Below, in pieces: positions 26 through 15,243 of a DNA stretch of 64,000 nucleotides. The DNA is from Candidatus Anstonellales archaeon (GTDB taxonomy: Archaea; Micrarchaeota; Micrarchaeia; Anstonellales; CG1-02-47-40). The position numbers and the translations under genes were made by a program. The notes below the pieces were generated by a model. It had not been told where the DNA came from. It saw only the letters and a program-made list of their open reading frames with translations, and did no database searches. Numbering within the stretch: position 1 is the first letter of the stretch; every line of letters begins with the position of its first letter. Where the stretch lies: positions 22,353-86,352 of the forward strand of contig JAWCQO010000003.1 of NCBI GenBank assembly GCA_038869735.1, in the 5' to 3' direction.

Positions 26-2017
26 GTGAAACAAAAAGGCCAGGCATCTCTTGAATACTTGATAATTACTGCCCTTGGAATATCTCTTATAGCTTCTCTT
101 TTCTATTTTGGAATAAATTATTCTACAGATAACATTCGCTCAACACTCGCTAAAACTACAGTTGAGAAGTTGTCTCGAGAAGTCGATTACATACATTCTC
201 TTGGTCCCGGCTCACGAGAAAGCATAAACATATACATTCCGGAAGGAACAACCAAATTTTCCATATCCGGAAATACAATCCATATGCAAATAGCCCTTTC
301 AAGTGGAATCTCAGATGTATTCTCCAACACGCAGGCACAGCTTATAGGCTCACTCCCAACCAATCCAGGAGCTTACAACATAAATCTGTTTCATACAGAT
401 AGCGGAAAGATACTAATCGGAGACTCTTACCTTTCCTGCTATCCTGACTCAATAGTCAAGACTCTTATCCAAGGAGAAAACTCAACAGCTTTGGTCTATC
501 TAACAAACAAAGGAGAAACAAATCTAAGCCAAATACTTGCATCGTTGAGCAGCAACTTGGGGGGCTCTCTAACTATAAGTCGCCAACCAGAAAGTACGCT
601 AGAGCCCGGCAAAAATTCAAGTGTTGAGTTGCTGTTTTCCACTCAAAATCAGCGGGTAGGTGCTTATTCAGGCATGCTAATCGCAAATGCAAGTGGTGGG
701 AGTGAATGCAGCACACTAATAACCCTCTCAGTTACTTCAACTCAGATAGAGGACACACAAGGTCCAGCTGTCACAACACTAAACATATCTCCGCCAAATC
801 CCAATTCAGCGGATAGAATTGTAGTTAGCGCAATGGGAGATGAAACCTCAACAGGCAACAACACAGTATCTTCATGCCTGGCAGATATTGATTATGCAGA
901 AATCTGGAACGCAATGTCTGCCAAAGACGGTTTTTATGATGAAATAAGAGAAGAAGTATTTTATGAGATAGGACTGCTATCTTCTGGACAGCATGTGGTA
1001 AGAGTCAAGTGCCTGGACTCACTCTCAAATGCTGGACAAACAGCCACCCATTCCTTTTTTGTTAATGCAAGCATTTCTGACAACATAGGTCCCTCGATTT
1101 CTTATCTTAACATCACGCCTACTAATCCAAACGAAAGCAGCCAGATAACAGTTGATGCCATAGCTGACGAGCTACTAAGCGGAGGTTCACGCATATCCTC
1201 CTGCGAAATTGGATTGGATTATAATGGAACATGGCAAAATATGACTGCTATAGATGGGGCATACGATGAAGTCGTCGAATCCGTTACCTACAACTTAGGA
1301 AATCTAAGCGCAGGGAGCCACACAATACGCATAAAGTGTACTGATTCCCTCTCCAATACGGGTCCCTCAACCATCTTGGGCTTTATTGTAACACAAAGCG
1401 AAGAATCAAGAAACAAACTACTCCTGCTTTCTGCTTCATCAATCCCAGGCCAAGATGCCGATGAAAACCGCTGGATTGCATGGTTGCAATACTACTCCTC
1501 ATCAAACAGACTAAACTGGAGCTTTGATGTTTTTACATATACTGACGTCACCTCAAACAATTTGAATCTTTCAACCTACAAAGTTGCTATTTTAGTTGGA
1601 GCTCCCTCTTCTGACGATAATTTCTACAATCTTCTGAGAAGCTACAAGAATTCCGGCCATTTCATAATCTTACTGGGGAAAGCCTTTATCTATGGGGGAA
1701 TGAATCTAAATCTCACAACAAGTACTTCATCCTCCATATCCAGAGACGCTTTGATAGTGATAACTTCCCATCCTGTAACCTCAGGATATGCAATCAACAA
1801 TGAATACGCAACAACTACCTCCAATGCCGCAATCTATTACAACACAAGATATAGAGGAACAAATATACTTTCAATTGAAGGATATCCAACAAGAACAGTT
1901 ACTGCAGAGCACGAGCGCGTAATAAGCTTTGGTGTTAGCCGTCCTGACATTCTTACAGCGGACGGTGAAACGTTTGTCAGTAGAATAATCAACTATTCTA
2001 TCGCAAACTCACGATGA
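26..2017 (+). CDS. Large pilin-like/adhesin protein: class III signal peptide, two tandem Ig-like repeats and a C-terminal alpha/beta domain
   Basis: N-terminus KG/QASLEY followed by a hydrophobic helix; two ~109-aa internal repeats (DTQGP..C..C / DNIGP..C..C); about 17 N-x-S/T sequons by manual count. Confidence 0.8.
   Translation: MKQKGQASLEYLIITALGISLIASLFYFGINYSTDNIRSTLAKTTVEKLSREVDYIHSLGPGSRESINIYIPEGTTKFSISGNTIHMQIALSSGISDVFSNTQAQLIGSLPTNPGAYNINLFHTDSGKILIGDSYLSCYPDSIVKTLIQGENSTALVYLTNKGETNLSQILASLSSNLGGSLTISRQPESTLEPGKNSSVELLFSTQNQRVGAYSGMLIANASGGSECSTLITLSVTSTQIEDTQGPAVTTLNISPPNPNSADRIVVSAMGDETSTGNNTVSSCLADIDYAEIWNAMSAKDGFYDEIREEVFYEIGLLSSGQHVVRVKCLDSLSNAGQTATHSFFVNASISDNIGPSISYLNITPTNPNESSQITVDAIADELLSGGSRISSCEIGLDYNGTWQNMTAIDGAYDEVVESVTYNLGNLSAGSHTIRIKCTDSLSNTGPSTILGFIVTQSEESRNKLLLLSASSIPGQDADENRWIAWLQYYSSSNRLNWSFDVFTYTDVTSNNLNLSTYKVAILVGAPSSDDNFYNLLRSYKNSGHFIILLGKAFIYGGMNLNLTTSTSSSISRDALIVITSHPVTSGYAINNEYATTTSNAAIYYNTRYRGTNILSIEGYPTRTVTAEHERVISFGVSRPDILTADGETFVSRIINYSIANSR
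752..1400 (+). repeat. Two diverged tandem ~327-nt (109-aa) domain repeats inside the first ORF
   Basis: Units start at 752 and 1079; shared D..GP....LNI.P.NPN, SSC, M.A.DG.YDE..E, G.H..R.KC.DSLSN.G. Confidence 0.85.
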
Positions 2018-2026
2018 GGTAGAGAT

Positions 2027-2434
2027 ATGAAAAAAAAGAAGGCTCATGCGGGAATTGAGTTTCTTATAATGTTCTTTTTTGTCCTGTCAGCGTTTGCATT
2101 TGTAGTTTCTCTTCACTCACTCTATACTGAAGAAGCATCAAAAATAGTAACTTCAGTCAAATCAAACGAGATGTGTCTTGCAATATCCGGCGCGTTTAAT
2201 GCGCTTTATCCTCTTGGAGAGGGTTCTTCATATCTTCTAAATCTCTCAACTTACCCCCGGGCCCAGAACCACAGTGTCTGGATATCAATCGAGCAGCAGC
2301 GTATAGTGGTAGACAAGGTTTCCTGTCCCTTAAGCTTTCCTATGCTTTCAAGTATCACTAATTCATCTTTTTTTCAGATTGAAAGAAATTTGTTTTTAAG
2401 AAATTCAGGCGGAGTGATGGTAATTGAGCAATAA
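2027..2434 (+). CDS. Minor pilin-like protein (class III signal peptide)
   Basis: MKKKKA/HAGIEF then hydrophobic helix; E at +5; 3 sequons; operonic with neighbours. Confidence 0.7.
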   Translation: MKKKKAHAGIEFLIMFFFVLSAFAFVVSLHSLYTEEASKIVTSVKSNEMCLAISGAFNALYPLGEGSSYLLNLSTYPRAQNHSVWISIEQQRIVVDKVSCPLSFPMLSSITNSSFFQIERNLFLRNSGGVMVIEQ

Positions 2435-2909
2435 AAACCACTATGTCACAGGGCAGCTCATATCCATAGATGCTGTTGTTTCCCTAATCGCGCTTATTTT
2501 TATAATCCTCTTATTTTTGTATCATTGGACAGAAGGTATCAAAATCACAAGCAATCTTGTAAGAAGAAATGGAATGGAGCAGTCAGCAATTGTTGCTTCA
2601 GATATTCTCTTAAAGTCTTCAGGCTATCCCCATAATTGGAATCAGTCAAATGTACAGGCAATCGGGCTTGCTTCCTCACCCCACGTACTTTCAGTAGATA
2701 AGATATTAGCATTCAAGAATATATCATACAACACATCAAAGAAACTCCTTGGCATAGTTGATGAGTTTTATTTTTATATAGACGATATCGAGGGAAATAG
2801 GATACACGAAGTTGGAAATTCCACATCAAGCGAGCTCTCTATCTCTGTTGTGAGGTTCGCGCTTCTTGATGGAAAAATGGTAAGAGTAGGGATGCTGATA
2901 CATGGGTAA
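2424..2909 (+). CDS. Minor pilin-like protein
   Basis: TG/QLISIDAVVSLIAL hydrophobic N-terminus, overlapping operon structure, 3 sequons. Confidence 0.7.
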   Translation: MSNKNHYVTGQLISIDAVVSLIALIFIILLFLYHWTEGIKITSNLVRRNGMEQSAIVASDILLKSSGYPHNWNQSNVQAIGLASSPHVLSVDKILAFKNISYNTSKKLLGIVDEFYFYIDDIEGNRIHEVGNSTSSELSISVVRFALLDGKMVRVGMLIHG

Positions 2910-3333
2910 AGGATTTATATTTACGCTTGATGCCGTTCTTGCGCTATTTTTAGTATTCTTACTCTTACCAACTATGATATACCTGCTCCGAGGCATACAA
3001 CCACCAAATTCTCTGCTTCTATTGGAGAAGAAATCAAATGATGCACTCGCAGTCCTTGGAAAAAACGGCGAGTTGGCAACTCTCAATGCATCGTCTCTCA
3101 ACGCCTCTCTTACCAACCTTCTTAGAGGGCTTTCATGGCATCTTGAGATAAAGTATTACAATTATTCAGGAAGTTTTTTAGAGGCAGGCTCGCTATCTGT
3201 TGGAAGTCAGCCACCAATCGATTCTCCAATAATTGTTTCGTCTAGTCGACTTTTTTTGGTTCCAAATCCTGAAAAAGGGGTAAAATACTACGGCATCGCA
3301 AGGTTATCTATATGGCAGAAAAAAAAGGAGTAG
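2902..3333 (+). CDS. Minor pilin-like protein
   Basis: MGKG/FIFTLDAVLAL motif typical of archaeal minor pilins; 3 sequons. Confidence 0.72.
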   Translation: MGKGFIFTLDAVLALFLVFLLLPTMIYLLRGIQPPNSLLLLEKKSNDALAVLGKNGELATLNASSLNASLTNLLRGLSWHLEIKYYNYSGSFLEAGSLSVGSQPPIDSPIIVSSSRLFLVPNPEKGVKYYGIARLSIWQKKKE

Positions 3334-4142
3334 CCGCAACAGCATCCGTAATTCTTCTTCTTAGTATCCTCCTATATCTTTCTTATTATCTCTCGCTTTA
3401 CTCTTCTTCGCTTTATTCCTCATCCACTTTACTATCAGAGTTTGAGACAGCAGGCGTAAACTTTGACTCAATTGATCAGGCAGTCAGAGAAACGACAAAA
3501 AGAAATGCAATCGATGTTTCACAAAAACAAACTAATTTGTCAATAGCAATCAACTCTTCGCGCCTCCCTACCTACTTTGAGACACTAGGCGCCACTGAAA
3601 AATTCCTGCGGCTACAACCAGAACTAAATTCAAACATAATTACAGACAACCACTCCGTAGTGGTAATATTAACTCCTTTGAACATAACCCTTAACTACTC
3701 CTCTTCCAGATTCCTTGTTGCTCCGACCAACCAACAACAGGACATACCTAACATCTCATTTTATGAAATCTCATTACTTTTGCAATCACCAACGCCATCT
3801 ATTAACTGGAGTTACCTATCAGAGCTTGAGGAAAATGACCCTTCCGCACTCCGCGTTAGAATAGCAATACAGGGAACAAACGGAACCACCTATTCACAAA
3901 AATATGTTAGTAGGACTTTACCTTCAAGAGCCGACCTTCTCAATTCGCAGGGGATTCCTATAATAAACATTAACGTTAATCCCTCCTCTACTCTAAATAT
4001 CACGTGGATTCCAGACACATATATAAAGATTAATGCGGGATTGAATAGTGCCGTTGTAGCTGAGCTAAAAAGTGTTGTCATCAACACAAGCATAAATAAA
4101 TGGGGATATAAGAGTAGGGGCGTGATATTGAGTGAAGATTAA
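3312..4142 (+). CDS. Pilin-like exported protein
   Basis: KKG/VAATAS followed by TM helix; Asn/Ser/Thr-rich beta-type body with about 10 sequons. Confidence 0.6.
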   Translation: MAEKKGVAATASVILLLSILLYLSYYLSLYSSSLYSSSTLLSEFETAGVNFDSIDQAVRETTKRNAIDVSQKQTNLSIAINSSRLPTYFETLGATEKFLRLQPELNSNIITDNHSVVVILTPLNITLNYSSSRFLVAPTNQQQDIPNISFYEISLLLQSPTPSINWSYLSELEENDPSALRVRIAIQGTNGTTYSQKYVSRTLPSRADLLNSQGIPIININVNPSSTLNITWIPDTYIKINAGLNSAVVAELKSVVINTSINKWGYKSRGVILSED

Positions 4143-4794
4143 AGATATCATGAGAAAGGAATTTGTGCTTTTGCGTGCAGATGATAGCTTGGAACACGTA
4201 CTAAAGACCTTTGCAAAGGAAGGGATAACTTCAGCTCCGGTAGTCGATGATGGCATTTTTATTGGCGTAGTAAGCGAGTCAAGTCTTTTAAGATACTTAT
4301 CCCCCCAAAAGTTTCTTTTTTTCTGGAAGAGAGACAAACCAAAATCCATAGATGAGATAAGAAGAATAACAGCTTCAAATCTTGCAAAAAAGGCAACCCT
4401 TACATTAAAACCAGATAATGAGCTTATTCAGGTGATCTGGAAAATAGCTGCAAACCCATATTGTGTCCCAATTTTAGACAAAAACAAGTTAGTCGGCATA
4501 ATAAGAGGGGAGGATATTCTTCAGCTATTTTTGAAAGAACTTGCAGTTTTGGAATCTGAAGCCACTAATTCTAAAAAAGAATGGTCATATTCTGAGACTC
4601 AAATAGATAAAATCTTGGAGATGATAAGAACTAAGGGCTCTGTATCCTGCAATGAGCTTGCGCGGGAACTAAATACCAGCCAGAGAAATATAGAGCGAAT
4701 CTGCTCTTCTCTTCACAAACATCATCTCATCAAGTTTAGATATTCTTTCTTTAGAGGGGCAATAGCTGAAAGGCTGGAGCATGAAACGAAATGA
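4132..4794 (+). CDS. CBS-domain pair protein with C-terminal winged helix-turn-helix
   Basis: KDIM..., SAPVVDDGIFIGVVSE and VPILDKNKLVGII CBS motifs; IDKILEMIRTKGSVSCNELARELNTSQRNIE wHTH pattern. Confidence 0.8.
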   Translation: MKIKDIMRKEFVLLRADDSLEHVLKTFAKEGITSAPVVDDGIFIGVVSESSLLRYLSPQKFLFFWKRDKPKSIDEIRRITASNLAKKATLTLKPDNELIQVIWKIAANPYCVPILDKNKLVGIIRGEDILQLFLKELAVLESEATNSKKEWSYSETQIDKILEMIRTKGSVSCNELARELNTSQRNIERICSSLHKHHLIKFRYSFFRGAIAERLEHETK

Positions 4795-6326
4795 AAAGCA
4801 GAAGATACGAAAGCCAGAATATCATGGATAACTCTGGAAGAATTAAGGAAACAGAACTTGATTCCTATAACCTATGTGACGGAAGCCTCAAGGCCAATGT
4901 AGCAATCAAGAAAAGAGAAGGAGAGTGCATAAAGTCCTATTTTTTGGAAGTACCAAAGTGGAAAGAAGGAACAGAGGCATTTGTTGAGGATATAAAAGCA
5001 GAAATTCTTAAGAAAGTCAAAATAACTACGCAAGAAGCACTTAACATACGAATCCTTGATGAAGTCAGAGGAAAATTTCTTTCGCTTGCTCGTAGCATGA
5101 TTCTTGATGCTCTACCGCACATCTCAGAAGAAGAGGCTGACGCTATTTCACGAAAAATCATACAAGATATGCTTGGCTTAGGAGACATAGAGTTCTTTAT
5201 AAAAGATGATAATATAGAAGAAATCTGTGTCAACGGAGCTTCTCAACCAATCTGGGTTTATCACAGAAAACATGGGTGGCTAAAAACCAACATATCCATT
5301 GCTTCAGAAAACCAAATCTGGAACTATGCAAGCGCCATTGCACGAGGCGCCGGCAGACAAATAAACGTTCTTTCACCTTTTCTGGATGCTTATCTTCCAA
5401 CAGGGGACAGAGTAAATGCAACTCTTTTTCCAATATCTTATTTTGGAAATACAATCACAATAAGAAAATTTGCAAGAAAACCATGGACCATCACAGACTA
5501 TCTAACTACTAAAACACTCTCTTTGGAAGTAGCTGCAATTCTTTGGCTTGCAGTTCAATACGAAACAAATATCCTCATTTCTGGTGGAACGGGTTCAGGA
5601 AAAACTAGCCTACTCAATGTTCTCTCAATGTTTATCCCACCAAATCAAAGAGTTACAAGTATTGAGCAGACAAGAGAACTAACCCTCCCCCCTACCTTTC
5701 AGTGGGTACCTCTCGTCGTGAGAGAGCCGACAAGTGAAGGAATGGGTAAAGTGAGCATGCTAGACTTACTAATAAACTCTCTAAGAATGCGGCCTGATAG
5801 AATACTTGTCGGAGAGATCAGAAGAGAAGAGGAAGCGCAAGTCCTCTTTGAAGCCATACATACTGGCCACTCCGTATGCGCGACAATGCACGCTGAGACG
5901 GTGTCAGAAACCGTCAAGAGGCTTCTCAATCCGCCATTTTCGATACCGCCGGTTATGGTTGAATCTCTCCATCTAATAATACCAATGTACCGTGACAGAA
6001 AAAGTAATATACGAAGAATTTTTGAGATAGGTGAGGTTCTCCCAAGCGAGAGAGAAGGCATAAAGGAAAGAATAATCTACAGGTGGAGACCCTATAAAGA
6101 TGCTATTGTTGCAGTTGAACCAAGCGTCCGCTTTATCGAAGCAATAAAAACCTATACCAACATATCGGACACAGAAATAAAAAGCGACTTAAAAGAAAAG
6201 GAGGAAGTCCTCCAGTTCATGGTCGAAAAGAACATAAACTCAGTCGAGGGAGTTGGAAATATAATATCCGACTATTATGACTCCCAGTCCTCGTTGCTTA
6301 CAAAGATTCGCAAAAAACAAATATAG
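4791..6326 (+). CDS. Type IV pilus assembly ATPase (VirB11/CpaF/TadA family)
   Basis: Walker A GGTGSGKT, RPDRILVGEIR Walker B, TGHS..TMHA His box; followed by two TadC-like genes. Confidence 0.93.
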   Translation: MKSRRYESQNIMDNSGRIKETELDSYNLCDGSLKANVAIKKREGECIKSYFLEVPKWKEGTEAFVEDIKAEILKKVKITTQEALNIRILDEVRGKFLSLARSMILDALPHISEEEADAISRKIIQDMLGLGDIEFFIKDDNIEEICVNGASQPIWVYHRKHGWLKTNISIASENQIWNYASAIARGAGRQINVLSPFLDAYLPTGDRVNATLFPISYFGNTITIRKFARKPWTITDYLTTKTLSLEVAAILWLAVQYETNILISGGTGSGKTSLLNVLSMFIPPNQRVTSIEQTRELTLPPTFQWVPLVVREPTSEGMGKVSMLDLLINSLRMRPDRILVGEIRREEEAQVLFEAIHTGHSVCATMHAETVSETVKRLLNPPFSIPPVMVESLHLIIPMYRDRKSNIRRIFEIGEVLPSEREGIKERIIYRWRPYKDAIVAVEPSVRFIEAIKTYTNISDTEIKSDLKEKEEVLQFMVEKNINSVEGVGNIISDYYDSQSSLLTKIRKKQI

Positions 6327-6348
6327 CCTCTGCAGGTGATGAGCGATA

Positions 6349-7272
6349 ATGATAGATTTTATTCCCTTTCTCCCTTTAAACCCTCGAGGCAGATTAACGA
6401 AAAACATAATAAGACATTTCTATCCCCTTTCGTCTCTTTTTGTAAAACTATTTCCTCACCTTAAAGCAGAGCTTGAAGAATCTGAGATTGCATTTGATGC
6501 ATTAGAATACGTTAGCAGTGCGTTCCTTTCATTTCTTATTTGGCTTATAGCCACCCTCTTAATACTTCTCACTTACATTTATGCAACTGGTATCTACTCA
6601 TATACACTAAAACAACTTTCCATTGCAGGTGTTTTCTCTTTTCTTCTTCCATTAGCTTTGTTCATATATACTATGCTTTATCCGCGCTGGATTGCAAGCA
6701 AAAGAAGATTAGAACTTGAATCTGACTTGCTTTTTGCACTGAGAGGCTTGTTGATACAAACAAGTGCAGGTGTTTCTCTTTACGATGCATTAGCTTTTCT
6801 AAGTGAAGGTTACGAAGACAAGAAAACAGGCTATGGGGAAGTAGGAAGGCAATTCCATCTAATTGTGCAGGAAGTGCGTGGAGGCAAAGAATTCACTCAA
6901 GCCCTTGAAGAAAATGCAGCAAGACACAGATCCCCTTATTATAGACGTGTGTTATGGCAACTTGCAAACGCAAACAAATCTGGAGCTAATATAAGCAGAG
7001 TTCTTCAAGAGATCGTTTATTCACTCTCAGATGAGCAGAGAATCCTAATTCGCAACTATGGTTCAAAGCTAAACCTTCTCGCTCTCCTGTATATGATTTT
7101 TTGCATAATTGCTCCTACTATGGCAATCATTTTCCTTTCAATAGCAAGTTCCTTTGTTGAGACATCTTTTTTTAACGAGATAACACTTGGGACCATGCTT
7201 CTTGCACTTGTACTCTTTCAGATACTTTTCATGGGGCTTATAAAGACCAGCCGGCCAGTGGTGGCGCTATGA
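6349..7272 (+). CDS. Type IV pilus membrane platform protein (TadC/T2SS-F family)
   Basis: LESDLLFALR..GVSLYDAL..YGEVGRQF..GG pattern, multi-TM, downstream of ATPase. Confidence 0.88.
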   Translation: MIDFIPFLPLNPRGRLTKNIIRHFYPLSSLFVKLFPHLKAELEESEIAFDALEYVSSAFLSFLIWLIATLLILLTYIYATGIYSYTLKQLSIAGVFSFLLPLALFIYTMLYPRWIASKRRLELESDLLFALRGLLIQTSAGVSLYDALAFLSEGYEDKKTGYGEVGRQFHLIVQEVRGGKEFTQALEENAARHRSPYYRRVLWQLANANKSGANISRVLQEIVYSLSDEQRILIRNYGSKLNLLALLYMIFCIIAPTMAIIFLSIASSFVETSFFNEITLGTMLLALVLFQILFMGLIKTSRPVVAL

Positions 7273-8228
7273 GCTACTTAGAAAAATTGTACGACAACAT
7301 AACCTCTCTCCTTTATGTCTGTGACATCAAATACACTACTTCAGAATTCATTCTCCGGATGTTTGCCTATGGAATTGTGCTAAGTCTAGTCATTTTTGCG
7401 GTGCTATCTGCTTATTCAACATCCCTGTCATTTTTCGGGTCTCTATTTATATTTGCTATCTTTGAGATATCAATTTACTTTTTCCTACTTGTCAGTGCAA
7501 ATAAAAGAACTGCTCAATTAGAAGAGTCTCTGCCGGACTTTCTTGCTTTTATGGCAAGCAACATACGGTCAGGGATTACATATGACAGGGCTCTTCTGCT
7601 GTCTGCAAAGAAGGAGTTCGGTTACCTTTCACGTGAAATAGACTATGCCGCAAAGGAATCTCTTGCTGGCAAGCCATTACAAGAAGTTCTTCTGGGGCTG
7701 GGAAGGAGAAGCCGTTCCGTGGCACTTTCCAAGTCAATGCGCCTTATAGTTCAAGGGTTTAATTCGGGGGGGAATCTTGCAAGCCTCTTGGACCAAACGG
7801 CCATCGAAATCCGCCGCTTCTCACTAATCAGAAAAGAAGTCCAATCTTCGATTTTAGTCTATAAACTTTTCATCTTTGCTGCAATTGCTCTGGGTGCTCC
7901 TCTTCTATATTCGGTTGCGAGTTTTCTAATAGAACTGATCTATGAAAGCAAACAAAGGATTTTCACTGAGGCATTTTTTGAGGGCGTTTCTTATCTTCAA
8001 CTCACCCCTTCTTACAATCCAATAACTCCCTCTCTAGTATTCTCGTTTTCTCTTCTCGCAATCTTAATAACGTCATTTTTTGGTTCACTTACCTCAGGAA
8101 TAATCTCAAAAGGAGAAGAATCGGAAGGCATTGCTTATTTTCCACTAGTAATCACAATATCTATCGCCGTTTTCTTTTTAAGCAGATTCTTGTTGGAATC
8201 ATTTGTTAAAAAGATTTTCCTCTTGTAG
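7269..8228 (+). CDS. Type IV pilus membrane platform protein (TadC/T2SS-F family)
   Basis: LEESLPDFL.FMASNIRSG, FG.LSREI, SGG.LA.LL pattern. Confidence 0.88.
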   Translation: MSYLEKLYDNITSLLYVCDIKYTTSEFILRMFAYGIVLSLVIFAVLSAYSTSLSFFGSLFIFAIFEISIYFFLLVSANKRTAQLEESLPDFLAFMASNIRSGITYDRALLLSAKKEFGYLSREIDYAAKESLAGKPLQEVLLGLGRRSRSVALSKSMRLIVQGFNSGGNLASLLDQTAIEIRRFSLIRKEVQSSILVYKLFIFAAIALGAPLLYSVASFLIELIYESKQRIFTEAFFEGVSYLQLTPSYNPITPSLVFSFSLLAILITSFFGSLTSGIISKGEESEGIAYFPLVITISIAVFFLSRFLLESFVKKIFLL

Positions 8229-8355: not shown

Positions 8356-8817
8356 TCACCCTACTCTCCCAGTAAGAGTTCCGGAATCCACATACACAAA
8401 TCCACTTACAAGGTCTCGATAAGTAATTTCAACCTTCAAGCTGTAACCCCCTCCCTTTGCAGGCGCTCCTGGCAACGTTCCAACACTTATCGTACTTGAT
8501 GTTCTCCCAGCAGAGATATTCATTGGAGTGGCATACACCACTGAGTTTCCTCTAAACGTTGCATTTATCTTTACTACTTCTATATCTGACCCAACGGCAT
8601 TTCTAAGCTGTATGCTCATAGCTCCTCCTTCTTCAATTCTCCACGCCGATACTCCCACTTGAGTAAACCCTATGGCCTTACTTCCTATAAAGTTCTCCAT
8701 ATCAAAAACGCCAAGAGCAAAAAGAGCCCCTACGACAAGTACTATCAAAAGGAGAGCCCATCCATACGTCATCAAAAAATCAAGTCCTGCTTGTGCTCTT
8801 AGAATACGCATAAACAC
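8356..8817 (-). CDS. Probable major type IV pilin (start may be 8811)
   Basis: RA/QAGLDFLMTYGWALLLIV: class III signal with the FLMTYGWA motif common in DPANN pilins; D in place of E at +5; 2 sequons. Confidence 0.82.
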   Translation of the reverse strand: MFMRILRAQAGLDFLMTYGWALLLIVLVVGALFALGVFDMENFIGSKAIGFTQVGVSAWRIEEGGAMSIQLRNAVGSDIEVVKINATFRGNSVVYATPMNISAGRTSSTISVGTLPGAPAKGGGYSLKVEITYRDLVSGFVYVDSGTLTGRVG

Positions 8818-8840: not shown

Positions 8841-8850
8841 ATTTATAAAT
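8841..8850. promoter_or_regulatory. Palindromic ATTTATAAAT, candidate shared TATA box for divergent pilin and membrane-protein genes
   Basis: Perfect palindrome gives TTTATA on both strands within an 81-nt divergent intergenic region. Confidence 0.5.
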
Positions 8851-8898: not shown

Positions 8899-9219
8899 GT
8901 GTTTATGATTTGGCACGTCCTCCTATTTATCCTATACTTCTTGACACTTCTCATTTCTCTTCACATAGGCAAAAAAATGCACGGCGGTCCATTCACTTCG
9001 GTATTGCCATTCTTTATATCTGCAGTTGGCATTTTGGCTGCAAAGCACTTTTTTGAGCTTATATTCGTGCTTTTTTCTTTTCAAGTAGAAAAAGACTTAG
9101 ATTCTCTGAGATTTTCAACACAAGCTCTCCAGCTTGTTGCAGGCATAATGCTAATGACTGCCCTCTATCATTTTTACCATATGGGCCATATTTTTAGTGA
9201 GTGGAAGAAGGTGCGCTAG
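8899..9219 (+). CDS. Small 3-TM membrane protein, His-rich (start may be ATG 8905)
   Basis: Three hydrophobic segments; 7 His; abuts next gene. Confidence 0.7.
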   Translation: MFMIWHVLLFILYFLTLLISLHIGKKMHGGPFTSVLPFFISAVGILAAKHFFELIFVLFSFQVEKDLDSLRFSTQALQLVAGIMLMTALYHFYHMGHIFSEWKKVR

Positions 9220-9531
9220 ATGGGGGAAGAAACATTAATTGGACTTGCAATTGGAGTAAAACTTGCAGTCTTCTTGGCAATTTTCTTTTATTCCCTTCTA
9301 ATAGCAGAGCTTGGCAGGTTAAGGGAATTCTGGCTTTTTATTGTCTTTGGTGCAGCCTATGCCATTGTAGCCTCCCTTGAATTTATAGCTGTCTTTTCAT
9401 CATTTTCTCAAGGACTTGTGCTATCCTTGGATAGTATACAGACAGCAATATACATTCTTGAAGGAATCGGCGCTATCTCCCTTTTGGCAATCCTCTACTC
9501 GATTGACAAAAATATAAAGAACTACAAATAG
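9220..9531 (+). CDS. Small 3-TM membrane protein, apparent paralog of upstream gene
   Basis: Hydrophobic pattern and shared E(L/F)I.V..SF / L..LY motifs. Confidence 0.7.
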   Translation: MGEETLIGLAIGVKLAVFLAIFFYSLLIAELGRLREFWLFIVFGAAYAIVASLEFIAVFSSFSQGLVLSLDSIQTAIYILEGIGAISLLAILYSIDKNIKNYK

Positions 9532-9545
9532 GGGATAGAAGGTAG

Positions 9546-10094
9546 ATGTCAAAACATTTCTCTCTCTCTTATCTCAAGCCGAACTCAGTTACTCTTTTTA
9601 TTGTTCCTGCAAGCAGGTACATAAATATAAACAATAAAATTTTGAAGCACTTCATAAATAAGCTTAAGTTTTTCTGCATTTACGTATCTGTCAGTAGGTC
9701 TGCGGTTGAAATAGAAAAAATACTCAAAAAAGCAAGTATCCAGACAAAGAATATCTTTTACATAGACGCAATCTCACGCTCGCCAATAGGAATTCAGCGA
9801 ATAGGCAATGCCATATTGTTAGAAAACCCTAAAGATTTAACACATATAAGCATAGCACTCTCAAAAGCGGTCTCCTCCTCTCCCGGAAACAAAAGAACAC
9901 TTATTTTTGTAGACAGCCTCTCAACTCTAGTTATATATAACGGCATCGATACTGTTACTAAATTTATGCATTATCTAATAAATCAATCAAAAAGGTGGGG
10001 GGTATCAGGAGCCTTCATATCTGTAGAAGAAGAAGCTAATACTGCGCTTCTCTCAAAACTTGAAAATCTCGTTGATCATTACATTAAGGTCTGA
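9546..10094 (+). CDS. Degenerate KaiC/RecA-like domain (DUF835/DUF7504-like), no Walker A
   Basis: CIYVSVSRS, IFYIDAIS, IFVDSLSTL.IYN, D..I.V C-terminus; P-loop position reads IVPASRY. Confidence 0.7.
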   Translation: MSKHFSLSYLKPNSVTLFIVPASRYININNKILKHFINKLKFFCIYVSVSRSAVEIEKILKKASIQTKNIFYIDAISRSPIGIQRIGNAILLENPKDLTHISIALSKAVSSSPGNKRTLIFVDSLSTLVIYNGIDTVTKFMHYLINQSKRWGVSGAFISVEEEANTALLSKLENLVDHYIKV

Positions 10095-10111
10095 CTACTT
10101 TTCGAGTTCAC

Positions 10112-10897
10112 TTAAAAAACTTCTGCATCAGGATAAATCTCTATCCCCTTTTCTGTTATCTCCATTGGGATAAGTCTAATCTCGTGTTTGCTTTCAGTCA
10201 TCTTTCTTACAAATATTGTTCTTACAAATGTTCCGCTTTCCTTCTTTTCGGTGAGGCTAAAGACGATCACTCCATCAGCTACAAACTCTTCAAAGCCTGT
10301 TGAAGAAAACCCATGGGCGCCTTCTTTTATATCCGTAATTGCAAGCAAGGTTATCTTAAGCGATTTTATCTGTCGCCTTATATCTGAAAGGGCTTTTCGA
10401 ATATCATAAACATTTTCAAAGTAAGCTGTAATTAGACTAAAAGGATCGATAACAATCCGTTTTACCCCATAACGCTCAGTATGGTCCTCTATTATCTCTT
10501 TTAGCACATCGAATCTATAAACTTCAGGTTTGACAACAACAAGTTTGTTTTCTTGGATGAGTCGAGAGGCAGCCTTGCAAATTCTTTTTGCCTTGTTTAT
10601 AATTTCTATTGGTTCATCTTCTAACGTGATATATAATCCAGGCTCACCCTTTGTCGCCCCCCAGCAAAGGAACTGCAAGGCAAAGGTCGATTTTCCAGTT
10701 CCGCAAGTCCCAGACAAGAGTGTGAGGCTTGAAGCCGGGATTCCGCCACCGACAATTCTATCAAACTCAGGAATGCCAGACTCAATTCTACTTGTATCCT
10801 TGACCAATATTCTAAAATTACCTCTCCTATCTATTCTCTTAAGTCTCTTTTCTTTACCACCAATCCTTTTTCTATTCCTCGTTGATGCCATAAACAA
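10112..10897 (-). CDS. KaiC/GvpD/RAD55-family ATPase
   Basis: SGIPEFDRIVGGGIP, Walker A GTCGTGKS, YITLED, RIVIDP, EEFVADGVI, VRKM. Confidence 0.92.
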   Translation of the reverse strand: MFMASTRNRKRIGGKEKRLKRIDRRGNFRILVKDTSRIESGIPEFDRIVGGGIPASSLTLLSGTCGTGKSTFALQFLCWGATKGEPGLYITLEDEPIEIINKAKRICKAASRLIQENKLVVVKPEVYRFDVLKEIIEDHTERYGVKRIVIDPFSLITAYFENVYDIRKALSDIRRQIKSLKITLLAITDIKEGAHGFSSTGFEEFVADGVIVFSLTEKKESGTFVRTIFVRKMTESKHEIRLIPMEITEKGIEIYPDAEVF

Positions 10898-11127
10898 ATA
10901 ATTCTTCTGAAAAGCTTATAAAGTAAAAAGAATGGCCATTTTATTGTCTGGACGTGCAGGAGGGAGAAGCAAGGCAAACCAGTTCATCAAATTCGAGGCA
11001 GTCGAAGAATTGCTCAAAATCATCCATCTGTTGTGCACTTCAAACCCCTTCCTGCTTTTCTCCTTCCGCGCAAGGGCATTATTTGTGTTCGCGCCAAATT
11101 TGGTTAGTGCTTAGTACGTGGGTAAAG

Positions 11128-11245
11128 TGCAGGAGGAGGGATTTGAACCCACGAAGGCCTAAGCCACGGGATTTCAAATTAAACTGTTTTTGTTACAGCA
11201 TTAATCTTAAGTCCCGCCCATTTGACCAGGCTCTGGTACTCCTGC
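11128..11245 (-). tRNA. trnL: tRNA-Leu(TAA) with 33-nt intron at 37/38 (intron 11173-11205); CCA not encoded
   Basis: Acceptor GCAGGAG/CTCCTGC + A73, D-loop AGCCTGGTCAAA, anticodon arm CGGGA-CTTAAGA-TCCCG after intron removal, long variable arm, GGTTCAAATCCC T-arm. Confidence 0.95.
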
Positions 11246-11339: not shown

Positions 11340-12092
11340 CTAACCATACATACTTCCTATGCCGTAATCCTTTCCCTCAGCTTCTTTATATTTATTATGA
11401 ACTGATTTTGCTTTTTCTATTAATTCCTTCATCTTGTCTTGGATTTCGGTAGCTTCTCTCTCCAATTCCGAGGTATCTACATTTATCCCGACAAGTTTAT
11501 TTAATGCTTCGATAACCATTGCAGCACCCTTGGGATCCATAAATTCAGCGTGAGCTTCTGCAAGTAGAGAACTTACGGGATATCCAAGGCCAGCTCCGAT
11601 TGAGAGGAGAACGGCAGCAACGCCTGTAGTCGCACCTTCCTTTATAACAGACACCCCTTTTATCTGCGATAATCTTTTTACAAGTGAAGGTGTGCTTGCA
11701 ATTGCATAAACAGTATCCTGTTCTCCTTTTATTGTAATTCCACCAAGTGAAATAATCTCCCTTGCCTTCTTCTCTTTTGCGTACTCAAAGATTACCTCTG
11801 CTAGGTTTCTTACTTTTATCATAGGAATTACAAATTCCGAGAGTATTACAATAATTCTTTTACTAGGCGAAGCATAGACCCTTGCAGGGTGCATTGGCAA
11901 ATAATTGTGCACTGCCGCCAAAGGTGGAAATGCGCGGCTTGTTACATACCCTACTTGTTCCATCTTGAGCTTCTCAACAAGATACGATGCGGCAACTGTT
12001 CCAACCAAACCTATTCCCGGAAATCCTTCGACTATAATAGAGTTTTTTATAGAATACTTTTTCGTTTCAACTATCTTTACGTCATCTATCAT
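11340..12092 (-). CDS. PAC2-family proteasome assembly chaperone
   Basis: IIVEGFPGIGLVGTVAASYL, P.R.Y, IISLGG, PDP-like MDPKGAA, VD..ELE.EA, acidic ..MYG tail. Confidence 0.9.
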   Translation of the reverse strand: MIDDVKIVETKKYSIKNSIIVEGFPGIGLVGTVAASYLVEKLKMEQVGYVTSRAFPPLAAVHNYLPMHPARVYASPSKRIIVILSEFVIPMIKVRNLAEVIFEYAKEKKAREIISLGGITIKGEQDTVYAIASTPSLVKRLSQIKGVSVIKEGATTGVAAVLLSIGAGLGYPVSSLLAEAHAEFMDPKGAAMVIEALNKLVGINVDTSELEREATEIQDKMKELIEKAKSVHNKYKEAEGKDYGIGSMYG

Positions 12093-12115
12093 ACAATGAA
12101 TTATCTGAGTAAAAA

Positions 12116-13825
12116 TTAAAAACCTACTTTAAGTGGATTTGCGTCCATGGCAAAAGAGAACAAGAAAAGAGAGGAAGCAGCCATCAGCAAAAAATATGGA
12201 AAAAATTTGGATTTGTCCCCTTCAATATGTCCAACCATAAGAGATGAGAAGAGACAGCATATTACTAAATAAATGCGATTTGCCAGAGGAAGAGCATTTT
12301 TTATTTCAGCCCCACCCAAACTACTCTCTCTCCCCAAGAAGTTCGTTTTCCCAATATCAAGCGAGTTTGCCATAGACAACACACTTCCAAGAATAAGGGG
12401 CACTAAAACTCCTCCCCCAATAATAATAGTGTATTTTTGAACAGCCAGGAGACTGGCTCTTTCTCTTAGCAGAGAGAGAAACAAAAAGACATTCTCTGCA
12501 CCCTCACGCAAAGCTCTTCGAACTTCACCACCGCTTTTGTACCCGTGTAACATAAGAAAGTTTACTCTTTCAAGAAGCTTGGAGCTGTTTCTTTCAGCCA
12601 TGTCTGAAAGAGCAGAAGATACGCTCATCCCAGCCCTTATCTGATTGCTTGCTGCAGAAAATTCCTTTGAAAGTTCTCCATAGCCTCCTTGGGCAATAGC
12701 CTCAATTATTTTTTCTTCTTTTGCAATATTCTGAAGAGACGCCGCATGAAATAGCGCGTCAGGTATAGCGTTTTCAATTTCCTGGTTTCGCCTGCTTTCG
12801 ACATATTCAAAAATCCAATAAGCGCAGATTGGAAAAATAATTAAAAGACAACCCAGATAAAGAAGAGGAGCCCAAAAAATTCCACTTATGAGCAGCAAAA
12901 CACCTATAACGATAGACGCAGCAGCTGCCATAAATGCAACCTGAGGCTCTACTCTCATCCTTTTCAAGTATCCTCTAATATCAAACTTCTTAGTTCCTGT
13001 CTTGGCGGGGGGCATCATCTTCCATACTAAAATAAGAACCAAGAGGTTAATCAAAGGAAATACTATCAAAAAACCAATCCATAACTGATAAAGCGAAATA
13101 TCAAACTGAGGCAAGGAGGAAAAAACAACTAACATTACCTGAAAAAAAGCCGGTAACAAGGCAGATACTGCTATAAAAAAAAGTCCAACGAAAGATAATC
13201 TTGAAGAATACTCCCTATTCCTTGTTTTCTGGATATCCACAAGGTCATCTGCAAGCCTACGTAAATTTTCACCCTTCGTCCCATACTCATATGCGGAGAC
13301 AAGCAAATTTACTGCCCTGAGTACATGGCGAGAGTCTACTCTAGTTGCAATGTTGGATATTGCAGAAATTGCAGATGAACCCCCTCTTATCTCCCCCATG
13401 GCACGTCTAAACTCCTCTGATACCGCATACTTCCCTTCTGAAATTTTTTCTAATGCCTTCTCAAACGGCATCCCCAAATCAATAAAAAGTGCAATCTCCC
13501 TTAGCACAAACGCAAGCTCAGATTCAATTACCTCCGCCCTTTTTTTTGCAAGCACCGCTGGAAAATGCAGACATCCATAAAGCGCAATTCCAAAGAAAAC
13601 AAGAACACTTCCAACTACAAAAATAATCTCTCCTGTAATTGTAATCGCAATCAAAAAAACAAAAATCAAAACAAGAATTGAGAACAGAACAGAGAATAAA
13701 AGATATCTCCTAACATTTATTCCAATTGCGGACTTTTTAAGAAGTGCGCTAATCCTTGCCTCTGTTTTCTGGGAAAATATCCCGAGTTCAGGCAGAAAGT
13801 TACCTACAGTTTCAATCAAACCCAA
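12116..13825 (-). CDS. Double-domain TadC/T2SS-F membrane platform protein
   Basis: Two T2SS-F-like units (IESELAFVLRE..G.PFEKAL and IENAIPDALF..YGELSKEF) joined by TM helices. Confidence 0.88.
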   Translation of the reverse strand: MGLIETVGNFLPELGIFSQKTEARISALLKKSAIGINVRRYLLFSVLFSILVLIFVFLIAITITGEIIFVVGSVLVFFGIALYGCLHFPAVLAKKRAEVIESELAFVLREIALFIDLGMPFEKALEKISEGKYAVSEEFRRAMGEIRGGSSAISAISNIATRVDSRHVLRAVNLLVSAYEYGTKGENLRRLADDLVDIQKTRNREYSSRLSFVGLFFIAVSALLPAFFQVMLVVFSSLPQFDISLYQLWIGFLIVFPLINLLVLILVWKMMPPAKTGTKKFDIRGYLKRMRVEPQVAFMAAAASIVIGVLLLISGIFWAPLLYLGCLLIIFPICAYWIFEYVESRRNQEIENAIPDALFHAASLQNIAKEEKIIEAIAQGGYGELSKEFSAASNQIRAGMSVSSALSDMAERNSSKLLERVNFLMLHGYKSGGEVRRALREGAENVFLFLSLLRERASLLAVQKYTIIIGGGVLVPLILGSVLSMANSLDIGKTNFLGRESSLGGAEIKNALPLANRIYLVICCLFSSLMVGHIEGDKSKFFPYFLLMAASSLFLFSFAMDANPLKVGF

Positions 13826-13827
13826 TA

Positions 13828-15243
13828 TTAGTCATCCCCATAAGTGAATTTTTGAATTAGTGCGAAGCTTTCTTCATAAGTTGGTTTTCTTCTTGCAAGT
13901 TTTCTGATAAATTCCTCTCTTCTACTAATCTCAGACAAAACTTCGTTCTTACTTATTCCTAAAAATGACGCTATCCTGTTAAATGTAGTAGAATTTAGAT
14001 ACTGTGGAATTAAACAATCCTTCTTTTCATCATATTGAAATAACATCTTAACCCCAATCTCCCCCTCTTTTTTTACTTCTGCAATCTCAGTTATCCTTCT
14101 TTTTTCACCGACCCTCTTTGTTTTTGCATCATAAAAAGAAATTCTCCTCTGGCATATAGTAAGGTCAAGGGATCTACAGTCCATATCCGAGACACCCAAA
14201 TTCTTCATCCTCTGGATGGCTTCCTGGGAACTTTGGGCGTGCATAGTCGCATAACTCCCTTTTGCTTGTCCGGAAAGCATTGTCTCAACTAGTCCGCTCA
14301 CTTCCTCACGGGTTCTTACTTCTCCAACAATAACCCTATCTGGTCTCATGCGCAAGCTGTCCCAAACCATCTCCTTTATTCCGATTCCAAGTTCCTCGTT
14401 TGCAATCATTCTTACAAAATGAGGTTGTAATACCCTAATCTCAGGAGTATCCTCAAATGCAACAACTCTTTCATTTTTTGGTACAAATGAAAAAAGCGCA
14501 TTTAGAGTAGTAGTTTTTCCGCTGGCGGTATTGCCGCACACAAGCATTCTCAAGTCAAACTGCATTGCACACCAGAGAAATGATAACGCTTCAAAAGTCA
14601 GTGTTCCATTGAGCGCAAGCTCCCAGGGAGCAAACGGTGAGCTCGAAAACTTTCGTATTGTAAGCTCCCCTTGAGAAAGGGGCGGGATGCTTGCATGAAT
14701 TCTCGAGCCTCCTGGAAGAATAGCGTTTAATTTTGGTTTTTGGTACGTTACTCTTCTTCCCATTTCACGACCCATCTTATTTATGACTTCAATCAACAAT
14801 TCCTCGTCGCTGAAAACTAGATTCGTTCTTTTCCACCCCGAATTTCTAAGATAGATATAAACAGGCTTTCCAAGACCAATAACTGATACCTCCTCAACAT
14901 CACTGTCAGATATAGGACATTCGAGCCCGCAAAATCCGCTTATATGAGAAAGGCATGCCTCCAGAATATCCCTATACTGGTCTTCTCCAAGCTCTATCTG
15001 ATTCTCGCGGCAATTTTGTTCTATAATCTCTCCAATAGCCCTCTCAATCTCCTCTTTCTCAATCGTTTCGTGTTCTCGTGAATATTCCGAAAATTTTGTG
15101 ATTATCTCTTTTGCAAACTCTCTTTCCTCATTAGAAAGTGGAGGTAAGGGAATTTGATACTCTGCCTTTACGGGTAATATCCGCCAGCCAATGTCTGTTG
15201 TTTTTTGTTCTCCCACTAAACTACCGATATTTTCTCTCCACAT
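13828..15243 (-). CDS. Second type IV pilus ATPase (CpaF/VirB11 family)
   Basis: Walker A GNTASGKTT, EDTPE, RPDRVIVGEVR; His box reads SGQ..TMHA. Confidence 0.92.
   Translation of the reverse strand: MWRENIGSLVGEQKTTDIGWRILPVKAEYQIPLPPLSNEEREFAKEIITKFSEYSREHETIEKEEIERAIGEIIEQNCRENQIELGEDQYRDILEACLSHISGFCGLECPISDSDVEEVSVIGLGKPVYIYLRNSGWKRTNLVFSDEELLIEVINKMGREMGRRVTYQKPKLNAILPGGSRIHASIPPLSQGELTIRKFSSSPFAPWELALNGTLTFEALSFLWCAMQFDLRMLVCGNTASGKTTTLNALFSFVPKNERVVAFEDTPEIRVLQPHFVRMIANEELGIGIKEMVWDSLRMRPDRVIVGEVRTREEVSGLVETMLSGQAKGSYATMHAQSSQEAIQRMKNLGVSDMDCRSLDLTICQRRISFYDAKTKRVGEKRRITEIAEVKKEGEIGVKMLFQYDEKKDCLIPQYLNSTTFNRIASFLGISKNEVLSEISRREEFIRKLARRKPTYEESFALIQKFTYGDD

Follow-up and report, generated by a model that had tools for sequence, protein, structure and literature searches.

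KaiC-like ATPases have been proposed as the main native signalling hubs of Archaea, and to our knowledge almost no chain leading from input to output has been defined for them. Makarova, Galperin and Koonin reportedly proposed in 2017 that KaiC-like proteins of Archaea act as ‘signal transduction hubs’, some partners being inactivated KaiC (iKaiC) proteins or domains (cited in PMC5847659). In DUF835 (PF05763) proteins, a multi-transmembrane (multi-TM) N-terminal region is fused to an iKaiC domain. KaiC-family ATPases encoded in or beside archaeal type IV pilus (T4P) operons are predicted regulators, for which the second interacting component is usually unknown (PMC4858521, Makarova, Koonin and Albers 2016). 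Autophosphorylation of ArlH controls its binding to the ArlI ATPase (bioRxiv 10.1101/2021.03.19.436134), and in Haloferax volcanii the KaiC-like CirA acts in a pilin-dependent pathway, lowering arl transcription and repressing motility genes (PMC10983859). Here we describe a four-gene set at 8905-10897 of a 64,000-nucleotide stretch (the window) of contig JAWCQO010000003.1 from a Candidatus Anstonellales archaeon. It encodes two small membrane proteins (TM1 and TM2), a stand-alone iKaiC and a KaiC-like ATPase, and is flanked by two T4P loci. With moderate confidence, we read the set as a regulatory switch in which an iKaiC/KaiC pair, tethered to the membrane, serves specifically to control the type IV pilus.

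The gene set and its products

TM1, TM2 and iKaiC are co-oriented. The ATG of TM2 abuts the stop codon of TM1 (TAGATG, a gap of 0 nt), iKaiC starts 14 nt downstream of TM2, and a GAAGGT/AGGTG motif stands ahead of each of the three start codons. The KaiC gene converges on iKaiC, 17 nt separating the two stop codons. All four open reading frames (ORFs) are present where an earlier note on this DNA (the original prediction) had placed them; its calls of three TM helices, of seven His residues, of a dead KaiC domain and of an intact, convergent KaiC also hold. The features of the region are as follows.

8356..8817, minus strand: type IV pilin (ORF, homologues, AF2 model and Foldseek)
8842..8849, no strand assigned: TATA-like palindrome TTTATAAA (sequence; putative promoter)
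8905..9219, plus strand: TM1 (ORF, public gene call, hydropathy)
9220..9531, plus strand: TM2 (ORF, hydropathy)
9546..10094, plus strand: iKaiC, DUF7504 (Pfam, fold model)
10112..10897, minus strand: KaiC-like ATPase (PF06745, motif alignment)
10915..10922, minus strand: TATA-like TTTATAAG (sequence; putative)
11127-11245, minus strand: tRNA-Leu(UAA) gene (ARAGORN with intron option)

The 182-aa iKaiC protein matches Pfam DUF7504 (PF24336) with 33.1 bits for a cut-off of 27, and PF24336 is also its precomputed Pfam label. It stays under the cut-off both for DUF835 (24.1 bits versus 33.1) and for Pfam KaiC (20.4 bits). The dead domain, which had been called ‘DUF835-type’, thus belongs to DUF7504, a family matched by 34 of 35 aligned iKaiC family members; no true DUF835 member was found in the control genomes. 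The protein has no GxxxxGK[ST] (Walker A) motif, and its β1-α1 loop reads VPASRYIN, without a G/K motif. Its AF2 model (pLDDT 92) has as top Foldseek matches PH0284 (2dr3, TM 0.73), KaiC, SSO2452, FlaH (4yds) and RecA. A predicted KaiC/RecA fold that has lost its P-loop marks the 182-aa protein as an inactivated KaiC and fits the iKaiC concept. At E <= 1e-3 the family counts 1480 representative clusters; most members are ~180 aa long and stand alone, and the motifs FFID, SPxxLT and DSLSTLxIYN are conserved.

Its convergent neighbour (10112-10891/10897, minus strand) is a single-domain KaiC of 259-261 aa that matches PF06745 with 172.6 bits (cut-off 26.6; E = 1e-50) over model positions 2-230 of 231. 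The Walker A (GTCGTGKS), catalytic Glu pair (LEDEP) and Walker B (RIVIDPFS) motifs are intact and align with those of the KaiC CI domain, to which the protein aligns, as it does to PH0186/PH0284. These motifs indicate that it is probably active as an ATPase. A single-domain KaiC, in a genome without any match to KaiB (PF07689), departs from a cyanobacterial-type KaiABC oscillator. The TATA-like element TTTATAAG, ~27 nt upstream of the KaiC ATG (10891), suggests a separate and leaderless KaiC transcript.

The membrane components have no family assignment. TM1 (ORF 8899/8905-9219; 104 aa from ATG 8905, the start used in the public gene call) contains three hydrophobic helices and exactly seven His residues, and TM2 (103 aa) contains three TM helices and no His. 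Neither matches Pfam, NCBIfam or PADLOC, the PADLOC scan giving no defence match, and word-index searches with TM1 alone or iKaiC alone returned the query itself only. A basic loop after helix 1 and a basic C-terminal tail lead to the same predicted topology for both proteins, with N-terminus outside and C-terminus inside. As the predicted outside loops have only 14 and 9 residues or fewer, TM1 and TM2 would lack an ectodomain. The two genes stand in tandem, as had been claimed; that they are firmly paralogous does not follow from a BLASTP E value of 0.068 and from a comparison of their orthologue profiles (hhalign) with a probability of 38 % and E = 3e-4, colinear over 91 columns. Their paralogy is therefore only suggestive. 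For an analogous 3-TM pair, that of genus g10, paralogy is clear (E = 1e-11 to 1e-18).

The abundance of His in TM1 (seven in 104 aa, five of which, H20, H26, H89, H92 and H95, are near the predicted cytoplasmic membrane interface) had led to the proposal of a metal/haem-binding sensor subunit, in which the His residues would hold a cofactor reporting redox or metal status. None of the seven positions carries His in three aligned orthologues, where Y, K, Q, L or S is found instead, so that a conserved metal or haem site is unlikely. Moreover, TM2 is devoid of His and the Pfam and NCBIfam searches linked neither protein to a known cofactor-binding family. A haem or metal function of TM1 is thus highly improbable, and this part of the original prediction is rejected.

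On the other side of the set, a pilin gene diverges from TM1-TM2-iKaiC across the palindrome TTTATAAA, in agreement with the original prediction. It is a stand-alone gene with ATG 8811 as likely start and GTG 8817 as a possible one. Its product has no Pfam match and displays a class III signal peptide motif (RA followed by QAGLDFLMTYGW) and the sequence Q..LDFL.TYGWA, invariant across 13 pilin homologues. The AF2 model (pLDDT 86) combines an N-terminal helix (4-32) with a β-sandwich, and the archaeal T4 pilus subunit 8fk7 is its top Foldseek/PDB match. Signal peptide, hydrophobic helix and modelled β-sandwich head are those of an archaeal type IV pilin, and homologues are found within T4P loci of relatives. 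The divergent spacer between pilin and TM1 covers 87-93 nt. Only three copies of TTTATAAA exist in 64 kb, one of them being at 8842-8849 in this spacer. If transcription of the pilin gene begins at its start codon, the palindrome is centred ~27 nt from that putative start; it is found ~56 nt ahead of the TM1 ATG, which is itself preceded by AGGTG; in both directions, plausible transcription starts occur at ~27 nt. From spacing only, we infer that TM1-TM2-iKaiC would form an operon sharing a TATA element with the pilin gene, with TTTATAAA as putative promoter in either direction.

Recurrence of the set and proximity to pili

The original prediction had chosen co-occurrence in other genomes as its refuting test, and the genes do recur as a group: within the order in at least eight further genomes, and beyond it in three additional DPANN phyla. 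The iKaiC survey covered 176 genomes of the same order and gave full-length members in about 35 of them. Regions of +/-8 kb were taken around 40 iKaiC loci and their ORFs annotated, 29 being counted as bona fide iKaiC loci. Because these 29 loci are not phylogenetically independent, the binomial p values have to be read with this reservation: a KaiC gene occurs within 3 kb in 15 of the 29 (background ~1.5 %; p ~3e-20) and T4P genes within 8 kb in at least 10 (background ~8 %; p ~3e-5). A small multi-TM protein is adjacent to iKaiC in 13/29 loci and a REC protein in 8/29.

TM1 itself is rarer. A profile search retrieved orthologues in only 5/176 genomes, with iKaiC adjoining in all five. Those in G135, G141, G142 and G143 (E = 1e-11 to 1e-14) each stand beside an iKaiC gene, and TM2 orthologues (E = 1e-6 to 1e-8) always follow TM1. 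The complete order TM1-TM2-iKaiC-KaiC is colinear in L016, L018 and L020. In the iKaiC tree, the window copy groups with the copies that carry TM1/TM2 orthologues, indicating that each adaptor and its input travelled together. L038, L040, L042 and L043 carry a 3-TM pair of a second sequence type upstream of iKaiC, and a divergently oriented KaiC gene. In L013, L014, L017 and L026, iKaiC is followed by the gene of a lone 3-TM protein of a third type, whose tail reads K-x-[YF]-G-F. A 7-TM protein in L023 was considered as a TM1+TM2 fusion, and no such relationship was detectable.

Beyond the order, a Nanohaloarchaea contig shows the arrangement 3TM-2/3TM-iKaiC-KaiC, where the second protein has two helices above the hydropathy threshold. 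On an Aenigmarchaeota contig, KaiC is divergent from an iKaiC-2/3TM pair (again with two helices above the threshold) beside a T2SSF-T2SSF-T2SSE operon. On an Altiarchaeota contig, T2SSE and T2SSF genes are interspersed with four or five KaiC-like ones.

KaiC copies next to iKaiC belong to a single orthologous lineage, matching the window KaiC with E = 1e-50 to 1e-80, while the second KaiC of the source genome reaches only 8e-21. The window KaiC has a basic N-terminal tail and ends in YPDAEVF. Basic, low-complexity N-terminal tails of 30-45 aa are present in the orthologues of L015, L017, L022, L024, L030 and L039, and most copies of the lineage end in Y-P-[DE]-A-E-[VL]-F.

Close homologues of the window pilin (E < 1e-35) directly adjoin the KaiC/iKaiC pair in six loci (L022, L024, L029, L030, L033 and L035). 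The order is iKaiC-KaiC-pilin in L024, with gaps of 3 and 15 nt, and KaiC-pilin in L030; in L029, KaiC is inserted in a run of three pilin genes (pilin-KaiC-pilin-pilin); in L022, KaiC-iKaiC-3TM-pilin occupy one strand. Runs of small 1-TM pilin-like ORFs come after KaiC in L042, L043 and L050-L052. In the window itself, the first T4P operon (26-8228, plus strand) encodes pilin-like 1-TM proteins, a T2SSE ATPase (4791-6326) and two TadC halves, and the second T4P motor (11340-15243), located beyond a tRNA-Leu gene, encodes PAC2, a fused TadC and a FlaI-like ATPase.

Regulatory switch, motor part or general hub

The company kept by other iKaiC genes bears on the function of the set. In a well-supported clade of the iKaiC tree (98/96), the two genes upstream of iKaiC encode stand-alone REC proteins (PF00072, E = 1e-19) instead of 3-TM proteins. 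In L028, the gene of a Cache-HAMP membrane protein (L028:9179-10735) immediately precedes two iKaiC genes and a KaiC gene; the protein has no recognisable output domain and may be a receptor signalling through iKaiC. Fusions of DUF7504 iKaiC involve REC, class III adenylate cyclase, WD40 repeats and cytidylyltransferase-like domains, as well as a KaiB-like plus V4R-like N-terminus whose domains were named by eye. Examples of fusions to cyclase, KaiB-like plus V4R-like, WD40 or cytidylyltransferase-like partners are P0256, P0257, P0261, P0262, P0034, P0061, L034:3850-4914 and L049:5487-6554. A nitroreductase-family gene, neither TM nor REC, is directly upstream of iKaiC in L027:8531-9052 and L039:8525-8962. 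As sister subfamilies are wired to REC, Cache-HAMP and cyclase partners, a regulatory role is favoured over a purely structural one.

A structural role has to be weighed all the same. KaiC and iKaiC could form an ArlH-like ring under a T4P ATPase, with TM1 and TM2 as a constitutive anchor beside TadC. The position of the set between two T4P motor loci fits this idea, and so does ArlH itself, a KaiC-fold protein of the archaellum motor, FlaH (4yds) being among the fold matches of iKaiC. The Altiarchaeota locus L056 (KaiC-iKaiC-2TM-KaiC-x-T2SSE-KaiC-KaiC-T2SSF-T2SSF) goes in the same direction, with KaiC-like genes among T2SSE and T2SSF in an order resembling arlH-arlI-arlJ; here, the incorporation of KaiC paralogues into a pilus locus may have been carried to an extreme. 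However, the window KaiC scores 52.4 bits against the ArlH/FlaH equivalog (NCBIfam NF052589), for which the cut-off is 215, and is not an equivalog of ArlH. An obligatory motor part is also hard to reconcile with the distribution of the genes, since most T4P loci of the order lack the set (full-length iKaiC in ~35/176 genomes, TM1 in 5/176) and several genomes carry it without nearby T4P genes. Together with the signalling partners of the sister subfamilies, this makes a structural accessory of the motor rather unlikely.

A regulatory switch would operate as follows. TM1 and TM2 would pair up as a heterodimer of six helices that barely protrudes from the cell, and their short basic cytoplasmic tails would hold the pseudo-ATPase iKaiC at the membrane. 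Since neither protein would have an ectodomain, sensing most probably takes place inside the membrane. iKaiC would bind the active KaiC, as a partner or in a mixed ring, and alter its ATP-dependent state (oligomerisation or autophosphorylation). The state of KaiC would then set pilus output. Its target could be the neighbouring T4P ATPase/TadC motors, by analogy with ArlH and ArlI, or else the expression of pilin, in the manner of CirA and the arl genes. The core of the original prediction (membrane input, dead-KaiC adaptor and active KaiC, all linked to the pilus) agrees with the recurrence of the genes, the signalling neighbours of the family and the pilin adjacency in six loci, once its metal/haem component is removed.

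Several observations weigh against a dedicated pilus switch of this kind. Profile-profile comparison of the four groups of 3-TM proteins adjacent to iKaiC does not demonstrate their homology (12 % for A2 versus A4, and at most 1.3 % for A3 versus A4 and for A5 versus A2, A3 or A4), the motif [RK][RK]F..G.[LF]K after the first TM helix and the C-terminal K-x-[YF]-G-F tail being common to 3-TM groups by eye only. No 3TM-iKaiC fusion was found among the longer iKaiC family members. iKaiC is absent from the only other genome of the same family, hence a patchy distribution. In addition, the Walker A motif of the partner KaiC, here a pilin-linked orthologue, is degenerate in three relatives of family f6 (L024:666-1448, L029:10087-10809 and L030:6349-7230), where GTGR followed by M, T or N takes the place of GTGKS; ATP turnover may therefore not be essential. 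The KaiC proteins of L022 and L039 have GKA in Walker A, and in these lineages both KaiC-fold partners may be catalytically impaired. Finally, six loci with TM-TM-iKaiC and KaiC (L016, L018, L020, L038, L040 and L042) are without a detectable T4P gene within ~8 kb, so that the pilus link is frequent, not obligatory.

The last observation is what would be expected of a general KaiC-hub signalling device with an output other than the pilus, its proximity to pilin reflecting a mere clustering of genes for surface and membrane proteins. The proposal that KaiC-like proteins are broad hubs (cited in PMC5847659 and PMC10983859) goes along with this idea. Against it, T4P genes are enriched ~4-fold near iKaiC, and KaiC orthologues lie inside the pilin operons of L024, L029 and L030. 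Furthermore, the window pilin was the only query used for pilin detection, so that the counts of loci ‘without T4P’ give a lower bound on T4P presence, and L042, one of the six loci, is among those with runs of pilin-like 1-TM ORFs after KaiC. On balance, an output unrelated to the pilus seems distinctly improbable.

The genome (884 kb, 97 % complete, DPANN-sized) offers few other candidates for signal transduction. HisKA has no match anywhere in it and REC has a single weak match (36.5 bits, C2:77646-77978); genome-wide there are two KaiC genes and three T4P ATPases. With no HisKA, no KaiB and one weak REC, the module is among the few candidate signalling devices of this organism. As a side observation on its surroundings, the tRNA-Leu(UAA) gene situated between the KaiC gene and the second T4P operon has a 33-nt intron in the anticodon loop; it was found only with the intron option of ARAGORN and was missed by default ARAGORN and by Rfam at the gathering threshold.

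Relation to described systems

Attachment of DPANN archaea to their hosts is thought to depend on pili. With four genes, the conserved module is compact, and its candidate target is obvious; confirmation of the proposed chain would open the hub hypothesis to direct tests and reveal the means by which a minimal symbiont regulates its principal surface appendage.

Like the hubs reportedly described in 2017, the set associates an active single-domain KaiC with a P-loop-less KaiC-fold partner from a family that is also joined with REC and other signalling domains, and in both cases the role is predicted. It differs by a stand-alone DUF7504 iKaiC, by an input made of two separate ~104-aa 3-TM proteins without a family and by its location in a pilus locus of a DPANN genome devoid of histidine kinases. 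With DUF835 proteins it shares the combination of a membrane part and a dead KaiC-like cytoplasmic domain; in the window, however, the membrane part is encoded by two separate genes and the iKaiC falls under the DUF835 cut-off and over that of DUF7504. Like ArlH and CirA, the KaiC-fold proteins of the set are encoded beside a T4P-type machine, which they would modulate. No archaellum gene is seen beside the window KaiC, the window having T4P ATPase/TadC loci only, and neither ArlH nor CirA is known to us to have iKaiC or 3-TM partners.

A more distant parallel is found in Bacteria. PilS, the sensor of the PilS-PilR system of Pseudomonas aeruginosa, detects the major pilin pool held in the membrane through direct contacts inside the bilayer (PMC6058289, citing Kilmury and Burrows 2016). 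PilS has six TM helices without a real ectodomain and is encoded with pilus genes; here, 3 + 3 TM helices are encoded divergently from a pilin gene. The lack of an ectodomain and the position beside the pilin gene allow a PilS-like reading, and it is tempting to propose that a TM1/TM2 heterodimer senses unassembled membrane pilin by helix-helix contact, with the dead KaiC gating the active KaiC and thereby tuning pilin synthesis or assembly. This proposal is speculative and, as argued by analogy, has a small chance of being correct. If true, it would represent a KaiC-based archaeal solution to pilin autoregulation and the first defined path from input to output for the proposed hubs. The parallel stops at analogy, since a sigma-54 activator receives the signal of PilS, itself a single histidine kinase, whereas here the TM helices are split over two proteins, the module has no kinase domain and a KaiC/iKaiC pair would act downstream.

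The originality that had been implied for the theme as a whole is not retained. iKaiC adaptors had reportedly been proposed by Makarova and co-workers in 2017. The association of KaiC with T4P had likewise been proposed in the census of 2016 (PMC4858521), in which DPANN were barely sampled; the present locus adds candidates for the second and third components (iKaiC and the 3-TM pair), which are shown to be recurrent. Collectively, the module is real, conserved and uncharacterised, and is a variant of an archaeal signalling theme already proposed, not a new category.

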